Of a stretch of DNA of 24,000 nucleotides, positions 1,707 through 3,412 are shown piece by piece (the stretch's first letter is position 1; each line of letters starts with the position of its first letter). The notes below the pieces were generated by a model. The model saw only the letters and a program-made list of their open reading frames with translations. It searched no databases and was not told the DNA's origin. A program made the position numbers and the translations under genes. Source of the DNA: Photobacterium sp. BZF1 (GTDB lineage: Bacteria > Pseudomonadota > Gammaproteobacteria > Enterobacterales > Vibrionaceae); assembly GCF_014349205.1 (NCBI RefSeq), contig NZ_JACSOF010000032.1, positions 1 through 24,000 on the forward strand, written 5' to 3'.

Positions 1707-1930
1707 TGAACTGCTCGGCACTAAAGTACCGAGTTTCCCGATTGATGACGATAATCGTTGTCAATCATTGTTGTAAAATGGGCTTCTTTAGCGATGTTTG
1801 CTCCCTGTTGGAAGTCTTATTTCAGCCAAGCAAGCTTAGGGAAGCCCTAAAAAGAACAACATCTACCCATCCTGATTTTTATACTGACGCCAGAACTTAC
1901 GCCAGTGGCAGCTATGCTGCCAATTTCTGC
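1707..1930 (-). ncRNA. candidate omega/reRNA scaffold of the solo TnpB
   Basis: Location follows the TnpB rule: the 3' end of tnpB through RE. Hairpin GGCAGC-tat-GCTGCC (1907-1921) spans the stop codon. A 68-nt closed domain is formed by GGGCTTC (1780-1786) and GAAGCCC (1841-1847), with inner CCCT/AGGG and TTGG/CCAA pairings. The RE hairpin lies at 1714-1733. No expression evidence is available. Confidence 0.4.
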
Positions 1931-3303
1931 CTTCGATGAACCACTTTCTTACGAGTTTTTGCTGTCTCGGCAAACATTTCCTCTTTAATGTAAGTAACAG
2001 TGCGTTTACGAAGTACGAATGAAGCATTTTCATCCGCATTTTGTTTGTTGCCGCAATCTAAGCAAATAAACTCGGCTTGGGTTGGGCGTGCAGTATTTAA
2101 GCTGCCACAGCAACTACACTCTCTTGAGCTATTTACGGCATTGATGTCGTTAATGGCAACCTTGCCAGCATCCAACGCCTTATACTCAATAAATGTCGCT
2201 AACTGCCCCAGAGAGACATTGAGTAGTGAACGATTAAGCCCACTTTTAGCCTTAGCATGATTCTTTACAAACTTGCGACCAGAGGCAGTACGCTTAGGCT
2301 TCGCCTTTCGTGTCATACCTTTAAGGTTAAGCTTTTCCAGACCAATAATGTCTCGTGAAACCTCTACGAGCTTTTTAGAAATACAGTGGTTGTGATTCTT
2401 CCGACAATCAGCACTCTTCGCATCTATGCGAGAAATCTTGCGCTGCAATTTTTCCTGTCGCTTCGACTCACATCGCTTGGATTTGTTGCCGTTCAGCCGC
2501 TTCTTACGAGCTAAAATGCGCTGGTAGCGCGCTTTTCGCTTGGCTCGTTGCTTTTTGCGCTCCACTTCCTCTGGTGAGTATTTAACAGCGTAACCATCAC
2601 TGCTGCACAAGTGCAGAGCGATGCCACGGTCAACGCCAGTGATCTTATCGTAAAGTTTTGACTCAGAGAGGTGGGCGTAGTCAGCAAGGATTTGCTCAAT
2701 CTTTCGCTCTTTATTACCGTCATTGAAGCTGCCAGAGAGCGAAAACCTACGACCTTGGCGGCTGATGCGAAATTGGTTAGAAAGTTGTTCAGGCTTGTGC
2801 GGCAGGCGAATAGAAAAGACCTTGCGAGGTTTTTTCTTCGCATGTTCCACGATGGTAAGCATTGAACCATCACCAAAAGGCTCTAACTTGAAAAGCTCTT
2901 TAGTGATCACAACGCTGCGTTTCTTATATTTGTTTTTAATGCGAGGGAATTTTGCCAACTGATTCTTTGCTTTCACCGTGTCTTGATAGGCTTCGGTGGC
3001 AGCGTTACGTAAGAGCTGGACAGGCATATCCCTCAAAAAGAAAAGCTCAGGAATAGCCTTAATGTCAGCATAGCCTTGAGTAAAAGTTGGAAATTCTTCA
3101 CTGTCATTTGCCGCAATCAGTGATTTGAACTCACTGATTTTCTGGTTGCGCATCACGTTCGCAGCGCCAACCCATTGCGCAAAGAATTGCGCTTGGCTTG
3201 GCGTAAGACGCTCACTGATGTTGATGCTAAAACCACGAATTGACAGAGGGTTATCTCCAATAGAGTGCTGGATAAATATACAGCTGTGGTATTTTAATGA
3301 CAA
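1912..3303 (-). CDS. tnpB: TnpB-family RNA-guided endonuclease (IS605 OrfB type), 463 aa
   Basis: The RuvC triad is intact: GVDRGI (D), IGLEKLN (E) and NADENAS (D). The zinc ribbon is CSCCGS...CLDCGN. The motif KAKSGLNRSLLNVSLGQ is shared with the second TnpB (KAKSGLNKSILDQGW). The start is a TTG with an in-frame TGA 4 codons upstream, and there is no ATG in the first 50 codons. The canonical first strand (RGFSINISERLTPSQ) begins near residue 23, so the true start is uncertain. Confidence 0.9.
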   Translation of the reverse strand: MSLKYHSCIFIQHSIGDNPLSIRGFSINISERLTPSQAQFFAQWVGAANVMRNQKISEFKSLIAANDSEEFPTFTQGYADIKAIPELFFLRDMPVQLLRNAATEAYQDTVKAKNQLAKFPRIKNKYKKRSVVITKELFKLEPFGDGSMLTIVEHAKKKPRKVFSIRLPHKPEQLSNQFRISRQGRRFSLSGSFNDGNKERKIEQILADYAHLSESKLYDKITGVDRGIALHLCSSDGYAVKYSPEEVERKKQRAKRKARYQRILARKKRLNGNKSKRCESKRQEKLQRKISRIDAKSADCRKNHNHCISKKLVEVSRDIIGLEKLNLKGMTRKAKPKRTASGRKFVKNHAKAKSGLNRSLLNVSLGQLATFIEYKALDAGKVAINDINAVNSSRECSCCGSLNTARPTQAEFICLDCGNKQNADENASFVLRKRTVTYIKEEMFAETAKTRKKVVHRRQKLAA

Positions 3304-3412
3304 CCATTTTTGTCATCATTTTTATCTGTTTTCACCAAGGGCTTGACTCGCCGCTAAAGCATGCGAGATTACGCCCTATTTTTGTTCAAAATTGCTCTCT
3401 GTTTTGAATAAA

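Follow-up and report, generated by a model that had tools for sequence, protein, structure and literature searches.

Which transposase, if any, could move a tnpB gene that stands between two transposon-type hairpins without a tnpA of its own? The question is raised by a locus of Photobacterium sp. BZF1 (contig NZ_JACSOF010000032.1, positions 1 to 24,000; this whole stretch of 24,000 nucleotides is termed the window), in which a second insertion sequence (IS) with its own tnpA lies close by. With a probability of about 0.85, the minus strand of window positions 1706-3383 is a non-autonomous element of the IS200/IS605 family, whose ancestor was of IS605 type (left end, divergent tnpA, tnpB with omega-RNA, right end) and which has since lost tnpA. 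It is an ordinary element that retains both hairpin ends, an intact tnpB and a guide RNA gene; apparently it could be mobilized only by a TnpA of its own family, and the neighbouring IS appears not to supply one. Features that looked unusual when the DNA was first read, namely a leader peptide, an atypical TnpB and a helper next door, do not hold up.

Ends and target motif

The ends of the element comprise the following features (LE, left end; RE, right end; TAM, transposon-adjacent motif).

1706-1736, minus strand: RE, GAAA-CTCGG-TACTTTAGTG-CCGAG-CAGTTCAT, with its hairpin at 1714-1733 and its terminus at 1706
1714-1733: RE hairpin, read directly on the plus strand as CTCGG-CACTAAAGTA-CCGAG
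3347-3367: LE hairpin, read directly on the plus strand as CTCGC-CGCTAAAGCAT-GCGAG
3338-3383, minus strand: LE, a two-tier stem-loop given by DNA folding and covariation, whose loop contains GCTTTAGC
3384-3389, minus strand: TTGAAC motif abutting LE, conserved in the family; predicted insertion target and TnpB TAM

The two hairpins lie 1.63 kb apart in the same orientation on either side of the minus-strand tnpB, share the minus-strand loop core CTTTAG, and differ in the fifth stem pair on both sides. The original prediction had pointed to these hairpins and to their compensatory stem change, which can be read directly, and had made the case depend on their likeness being kept when more copies were aligned. 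It is kept: hairpins with the CTTTAG loop are conserved, with compensatory stem changes, in ~30 related marine gammaproteobacterial elements, and both recur in other genera at equal positions relative to tnpB with covarying stems. The proposal of an IS200/IS605-type element that is structurally complete but lacks tnpA is thereby supported. As is characteristic of this family, subterminal hairpins of the same orientation are found at both ends, and terminal inverted repeats are absent. The left-end pattern TTGARC-N10-22-CTCG-N3-8-TTTAG matches the window once, compared with 0.01 matches expected, which goes beyond chance.

In the DNA fold of LE, 3373-3377 pairs with 3338-3342 to form the outer stem and 3363-3367 pairs with 3347-3351 to form the inner stem. 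Over 14 left ends, 92.2% of the alignment cells are paired in this structure versus 30-40% in slid controls, and compensatory changes occur in 7 of the 14 pairs. The architecture of RE is uniform in all clade elements examined and consists of GGAA-A, a stem of 4-6 bp, a loop with (G)CTTTAG(C), the return stem, and (A/T/C)(A/G)GTTCA(T/C); the stem itself varies by lineage (ACCCG, ACTCG, ACCTCC, CTCGG, ACTCGC, CCCAGC).

The boundaries follow from comparison with relatives. TTGA(A/G)C is invariant in 14/14 left ends, and the 6 nt outside it are variable. The flanks of the copies in Vreelandella rituensis (n = 6) diverge immediately outside the TTGAAC-type motif, and flank divergence on the other side starts right after GTTCAT. 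The window element therefore terminates in GTTCAT at 1706, where the clade loses similarity after GTTCA(T/C), and its left end is situated at 3383/3384, directly after TTGAAC. The ends first proposed, 1707 and 3378, were nearly right. TAGGGCG, which had been taken for the 5' end at 3378, is the outer LE stem, and the boundary lies 5-6 nt further out. The suggestion that other copies would fix the ends was fruitful as far as the clade relatives are concerned; no second copy of the exact element was found. The right flank begins TGAAGG..., so there is no target duplication, and comparison points to insertion 3' of a short fixed target. TTGAAC is likely to be both this target and the TAM of TnpB, judging from the aligned ends and by analogy with TTGAT of ISDra2; a literature search for TnpB together with TTGAAC returned no paper.

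We also note a hairpin of superficially RE-like appearance, CAAACC-ATTTTA-GGTTTG-ATGTTCAT, on the minus strand at 1496-1527, 190 nt beyond the real RE. The stretch is 81% identical to the start of a PEP-CTERM protein gene (534-560) and is probably a duplicated gene-start remnant that resembles RE by chance. A solo right end at 1500-1517 (minus strand) was rejected: a relaxed pattern has 0.28 matches expected by chance, omega-RNA motifs are missing upstream, and the segment overlaps the duplicated gene start.

The predicted omega-RNA and its guide

Downstream of tnpB, the element carries the following.

1706-1930, minus strand: omega-RNA scaffold, with covariation-supported helices from 1906 to 1706 and a further hairpin across the stop codon (~1925-1907)
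1686-1705, minus strand: predicted omega-RNA guide TGAAGGAAAATACAAGCTTG, the flank just outside RE, placed according to the known layout of TnpB and omega-RNA (PMC8612924, PMC10055086)

The 255 nt upstream of the RE terminus were aligned for 16 clade elements. RNAalifold on these 3' regions gave 46 consensus pairs, and compensatory changes are seen in 31; 91.6% of the cells are paired versus 32-43% in slid controls, and none of 500 shuffles reaches any observed measure. A structured RNA supported by covariation is thus present at the 3' end of tnpB and terminates at the RE boundary, as omega-RNAs do. Comparison of the window with L075, one of its closest relatives, shows 82.6% identity in the 3' region, 72% from LE to the start codon, 54% at third codon positions, and 36-41% in the DNA outside the ends. 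A non-coding stretch so much better conserved than third codon positions and flanks is the signature of an omega-RNA scaffold, and the ~200-225 nt after the tnpB stop codon are, on this comparative evidence, a predicted scaffold of that kind supported by covariation.

Structured RNA between the stop codon and RE had already been anticipated, together with a closed structure of 68 nt. The first expectation is borne out. The 68-nt structure does occur in the minimum-free-energy fold of the window itself; its closing helix GGGCTTC/GAAGCCC, examined column by column, is not conserved in relatives, and the family-level fold of this region differs from that of the window and is the one supported by covariation. 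No omega-RNA family was matched in the Rfam scan of the whole window at gathering thresholds, nor in the E-value scan of 1500-5700, where the sole match was a chance one to flavi_FSE (E = 4.8). The guide region varies in sequence among relatives, which a guide would be expected to do. A likeness between the right flanks of the window and L075 (TGAA..TACAAGC) is attributed to chance, as blastn and tblastx find no homology of the flanks. Two open reading frames (ORFs), 1613-1939 (plus strand, 108 aa) and 1570-1764 (minus strand, 64 aa), overlap the omega-RNA and RE region and in all likelihood are not real genes; L075 has a similar ORF that extends into RE and was called as a gene.

The TnpB protein

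1912-3246, minus strand: tnpB coding sequence, 444 codons and a stop codon, with a CTG start at 3246-3244

The minus-strand ORF extends over 1912-3303 and reads 463 aa from a TTG, its first ATG being codon 51; the residue numbers of RuvC and the zinc ribbon given here use this 463-aa numbering. The protein matches the NCBIfam model guided_TnpB (NF040570) with 146 bits (cut-off 100) and the Pfam Cas12f1-like TNB domain PF07282 with E = 1.3e-12; the match to OrfB_IS605 is weak, and HTH_OrfB has no match in the protein. As initially reported, the full RuvC triad and the zinc ribbon (D/E/D and CxxC...CxxC) are present. The triad D225, E323 and D424 is invariant in both clade alignments and is split by the zinc ribbon (TNB), C396/C399...C414/C417, in which C399 and C414 are invariant in the clade. 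This arrangement, the family match and a WED/REC/RuvC fold identify the protein as a TnpB, and the full-length ORF of the window retains every invariant clade residue. Ka/Ks (the ratio of nonsynonymous to synonymous substitution rates) against L075 is 0.05 for the whole gene, with a value of 0.19 in its first 31 codons.

The AlphaFold2 model has a mean pLDDT (predicted local distance difference test) of 89.2, and the basic C-terminal tail alone is disordered. The best Foldseek matches of the model in the PDB are ISFba1 TnpB and ISDra2 TnpB (8IAZ, 8H1J), with Cas12f also found. The solved TnpB-type proteins among the structural matches range from 384 to 540 aa, and full-length clade relatives from 436 to 505 aa. 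The window protein, which had been described as an atypical TnpB of 463 aa, has 444 aa and an ordinary fold; neither its length nor its fold is atypical, and it is a normal member of the clade. In relatives that have tnpA, the ORF simply continues across the omega-RNA region and reaches up to 520 aa; in the sublineage of the window it stops ~200 nt earlier. Family membership predicts RNA-guided, TAM-dependent DNA cleavage as the putative activity of the protein.

Start codon and putative promoter

Two signals precede the coding sequence.

3254-3258, minus strand: Shine-Dalgarno (SD) sequence GGAGA, 7 nt ahead of the CTG; L075 also has GGAGA in front of its start codon TTG
3275-3303, minus strand: sigma-70-like tnpB promoter TTGTCA-17 nt-TATATT, found by a scan (10/12 positions) and of presumed function

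Homologues begin with MAIRGFS..., which aligns to window codon 20. The homologous N-terminus places the start at CTG 3246 and gives a protein of 444 aa. Most clade members have ATG at this position, Nitrincola has GTG, L075, L077 and L078 have TTG, and the window has CTG; in all 14 other clade loci with the start located, it is ATG, GTG or TTG. The ORF does have only a TTG start and no ATG in 50 codons, as was pointed out at the outset. The 22-aa leader deduced from this, however, is not real and is an artefact of ORF extension, since the homologues start at codon 20 and the TTG at 3303-3301 forms the first three bases of the -35-like hexamer. The promoter hexamers stand at an equal position in L075 and, by eye, in L077 as well. 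The ATG at codon 51, chosen by the gene caller (P0001, 413 aa), was rejected as a start because the protein would then lose 31 residues, among them invariant ones and those of the first beta-strand in the model.

An inverted repeat, ATGACA-N9-TGTCAT (3297-3317, minus strand), overlaps the -35-like hexamer. The corresponding site of L075 reads TGAGA...TCTCA, which is a compensatory change relative to the window. This repeat may be a candidate operator, or an RNA or DNA hairpin, that regulates tnpB.

Autonomous relatives and the loss of tnpA

A protein search delineates a distinct clade of ~47 proteins that are 45-85% identical to the query; identity drops to 33% in the match that follows. Its named members belong to Vibrio, Shewanella, Marinomonas and Vreelandella, and ~40 loci of the clade were found in genome and metagenome scans. 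Directly upstream of tnpB, a divergent Y1 tnpA is present at 12 genome loci from 5 genera (Nitrincola, Pseudoalteromonas, Marinomonas, Vreelandella and Marinobacter) and at 7 metagenome loci; most full-length relatives have such a gene between LE and tnpB. Vreelandella rituensis contains at least 8 autonomous copies of ~97% identity (L005-L013), whose shared block of 2.15 kb has sharp edges (5455-7600 in L005). This multiplicity, together with the tnpA-bearing loci, shows that the clade consists of genuine, recently active IS605-type elements. Several of the Vreelandella rituensis copies lie at contig ends, and the set looks like a recent transposition burst; one copy, L009, has an internal deletion of ~60 bp in tnpB.

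No Y1 gene or remnant is present between 3247 and 3383 of the window. Because full-length clade relatives possess this gene, the window copy is a non-autonomous (IS1341-like) member. Its closest relatives lack tnpA as well, namely L075/76 (85% identity), L077 (70%) and the Vibrio parahaemolyticus loci L078-81 (60%), and the gene is also absent from L083, L088/89/97 and L091. In two metagenome loci, L086 (2829-2930) and L087 (593-694), only the first 34 codons of tnpA are left between LE and tnpB; this remnant is an intermediate in the loss of tnpA. The spread of tnpA-less and remnant members indicates that tnpA was lost more than once in the clade, the window copy being one such derivative.

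What the window element retains is its set of cis features (target motif, LE, promoter-like site, SD, tnpB, omega-RNA and RE, with tnpA absent), and this set evolves under purifying selection. An alternative to a transposon is a domesticated, stand-alone TnpB and omega-RNA that serves the host, for instance in RNA-guided regulation or in defence. The persistence of the tnpA-less sublineage over a long divergence (synonymous divergence, dS, saturated; identity 60-85%) and its fixed position in Vibrio parahaemolyticus genomes would suit such a role. We nevertheless regard it as very unlikely. The RuvC triad is intact, unlike in the known domesticated TnpBs of the TldR type, which are nuclease-dead; the window and L075 have both kept the LE hairpin and TTGAAC, for which transposition is the only use; the guide region varies between relatives and matches the local flank only; and a conserved neighbouring gene is absent.

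The neighbouring insertion sequence

To the right of the element are a hipB-like gene (3500-3754), a second element of IS605 type, and hipA (5571-6878).

~3756-5575: neighbouring IS605-type element, with tnpB at 3829-5031 (minus strand) and Y1 tnpA at 5098-5505 (plus strand), as delimited by Vibrio plasmid copies

The limits of this IS were set by comparison with plasmid copies of Vibrio casei, V. rumoiensis and V. diabolicus (77-80% identity). The original prediction held that its TnpA could act in trans on the tnpA-less element, and it drew on a TAGGG likeness of the two left ends. The idea has a general foundation. About 75% of tnpB genes have no tnpA nearby and are regarded as non-autonomous elements that an ends-matched TnpA mobilizes in trans, a prediction made in the literature from conserved ends (PMC10055086). 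Trans-mobilization of tnpA-less elements is thus an accepted idea, the Y1 gene of the neighbour (5098-5505) lies only 1.7 kb away, and its product shows 37-47% identity to cognate TnpAs from the clade.

The ends of the two elements, however, are unrelated. The hairpins of the neighbour have GC-rich stems of 8-9 bp in the DNA fold. Its left end reads TGGCTAGGGTA-CTCCCTGC-GAAGCA-GCAGGGAG and is flanked by ..AC (TTAC, GTAC or CCAC); its right end has a 9-bp stem (TCCCCCGCC/GGCGGGGGA) and a 16-nt loop, followed by ...GGATGTCAA, the minus strand terminating in ...GGAGGATGTCAA. This is in contrast to the 5-bp stems, the GCTTTAGC loops, the GTTCAT terminus and the TTGAAC target of the tnpA-less element. 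Comparison of the two sets of ends, which had been suggested as a check, finds stems, loops, target and terminus all unrelated. The shared TAGGG is internal and occupies non-equivalent positions; TAGGGC belongs to the outer LE stem of the tnpA-less element, and both elements in fact extend beyond the motif. Furthermore, cognate TnpAs of different genera are only 52-54% identical and still keep the CTTTAG hairpins. Given that trans-mobilization is predicted from conserved ends, the unrelated ends argue against the neighbour as a plausible helper. The adjacent IS seems to represent a different lineage that is unlikely to provide the TnpA, and mobilization of the tnpA-less element by it is very improbable.

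A related proposal concerns the tnpA-less sublineage as a whole (window, L075/76, L077 and Vibrio), in which synonymous sites are saturated while LE, RE and the omega-RNA stay constrained and start codons are weak (TTG; CTG in the window). This sublineage might have survived for long without a cognate transposase, through cross-family mobilization by heterologous Y1 TnpAs such as that of the neighbour or through TnpB-driven homing alone; we give this little credence.

Proposed mechanism and present mobility

The steps by which the element would move are drawn from the established model of IS200/IS605 elements and TnpB (PMC8612924, PMC10055086). The promoter of tnpB (3303-3275) would drive transcription of the gene, and translation would begin at 3246 with the weak start codon CTG. 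TnpB would be bound by the omega-RNA (~1930 to 1686), with its guide copied from the right flank. Excision of the top (minus) strand, in the form of a circle, and its re-insertion 3' of TTGAAC would require a cognate Y1 TnpA from the same clade that is encoded at another genomic site and acts in trans. TnpB with the omega-RNA would then cut the rejoined donor joint, TTGAAC/TGAAGGAAAATAC..., and recombination with the sister copy would restore the element.

Several observations weigh against this account. A cognate tnpA is not visible within the 24-kb window. No second copy of the exact element and no empty site were found, so that its own boundaries rest on the family comparison: megablast of 1500-3500 against plasmids gave no other copy, exact-protein look-ups returned the contig of the window alone, and the empty-site check showed that the related genome GCA_003026455.1 matches the window at 21754-23998 only, with 94% identity. 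In Vibrio parahaemolyticus, the relatives occupy a single fixed locus, and their outer LE stem is degenerate. Lastly, the start is CTG where relatives have ATG, GTG or TTG, and expression of TnpB may accordingly be very low to judge from the codon. CTG can initiate translation in bacteria, though at low efficiency.

These observations could be united by supposing that the element is an immobile, decaying fossil, whose ends are intact because mobility was lost recently and whose tnpB is effectively silenced by the CTG start. The start codon, which sets the window apart from 14 other clade loci, the single copy in the visible sequence, the lack of a cognate tnpA in the window and the fixed Vibrio relatives would all agree with this. 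Decay, however, is hard to reconcile with a full-length ORF that has every invariant clade residue, with the low Ka/Ks, including that of the first 31 codons, with the retained SD and promoter, and with non-coding ends and an omega-RNA region much better conserved than synonymous sites; initiation at CTG, though inefficient, is possible in bacteria. We therefore consider a fossil unlikely and prefer a non-autonomous element with a complete set of cis features. The Vibrio parahaemolyticus relatives illustrate that tnpA-less members can become immobile. There, the tnpA-less relative occurs in several assemblies (L078-L081) downstream of DsbB-like and SSB-like genes, and this copy, whose outer LE stem no longer pairs, may be fixed and immobilized.

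Comparison with known systems

The element resembles ISDra2 of Deinococcus radiodurans in that the omega-RNA lies at the 3' end of tnpB and ends at RE, and in that a TAM of 5-6 nt abuts LE. This motif is TTGAT in ISDra2 and TTGAAC here. The fold and catalytic residues of ISDra2 TnpB are shared as well (clade profile versus 8H1J/8BF8, E = 1.8e-54; Foldseek, E = 7.9e-14). Nevertheless, identity over the structural alignment is only ~17-18%, ISDra2 TnpB has 408 aa versus 444 aa, the omega-RNA differs in sequence and has no Rfam match, and the window copy is without tnpA.

IS605 and IS608 of Helicobacter pylori are the reference systems for hairpin recognition by Y1 TnpA. With these the window element has in common that its hairpins are subterminal and terminal inverted repeats are lacking, that insertion takes place 3' of a fixed short target, which is not duplicated, and that tnpA and tnpB are divergent in full-length relatives of the clade. 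The hairpin sequences differ, and the end motifs are TTGAAC and GTTCAT here versus TTAC and TCAA in IS608. The neighbouring IS (RE ...TGTCAA, left flank ..AC) is closer to IS608 in this respect.

In Geobacillus stearothermophilus, ~50 ISGst elements lack tnpA and are of the IS1341 (tnpB-only) type (PMC10055086). Like them, the window element has tnpB and omega-RNA between family-type ends, lacks tnpA and is presumed to be mobilized in trans by an ends-matched TnpA (PMC10055086). It differs in that its TnpB belongs to a distinct, marine gammaproteobacterial clade, for which tnpA-bearing parents and an intermediate with a 34-aa remnant have been identified.

Genomic context

The region between LE and hipB contains, at 3413-3489, two direct repeats of 28 nt (TTAACGGCYATACCGTGTAAA..., 75% identical) and a third, degenerate copy, each with a palindrome ACGG-N5-CCGT; the tnpA-less element is inserted just upstream of them. 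These repeats are probably putative operator sites of HipB.

The neighbouring IS lies precisely at the junction of hipB (stop codon TAA, 3752-3754) with hipA. On a Photobacterium plasmid this junction is intact, the hipA ATG coming directly after the TAA of hipB. The LE terminus of this IS (...AGGATGGT, also in the Vibrio plasmid copies) contributes an AGGA that resembles an SD sequence and, at 5571, an in-frame ATG; hipA probably has its native start shortly downstream, at 5580. From this layout, the insertion may uncouple or re-drive expression of the hipA toxin gene. The G+C content of hipA, 0.55, is above that of its surroundings.

GCA_003026455.1 (L102) differs from the window left of 21754. 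As its match is limited to 21754-23998, the two IS elements, hipBA and an integrase-like ORF at 7967-8926 all belong to a variable part of the window.

Significance

The importance of the element beyond annotation is slight; most of the family consists of tnpB-only elements whose ends are intact, and this one opens no new question. For a TnpB clade of marine Gammaproteobacteria, the gain lies in exact boundaries, a likely TAM (TTGAAC), a corrected start codon and an alignment of the omega-RNA. No Rfam model covers this omega-RNA, and the alignment may help the mining of compact RNA-guided nucleases. For the biology of the family, a single clade holds the series from autonomous elements through a tnpA-remnant element to tnpA-less elements.

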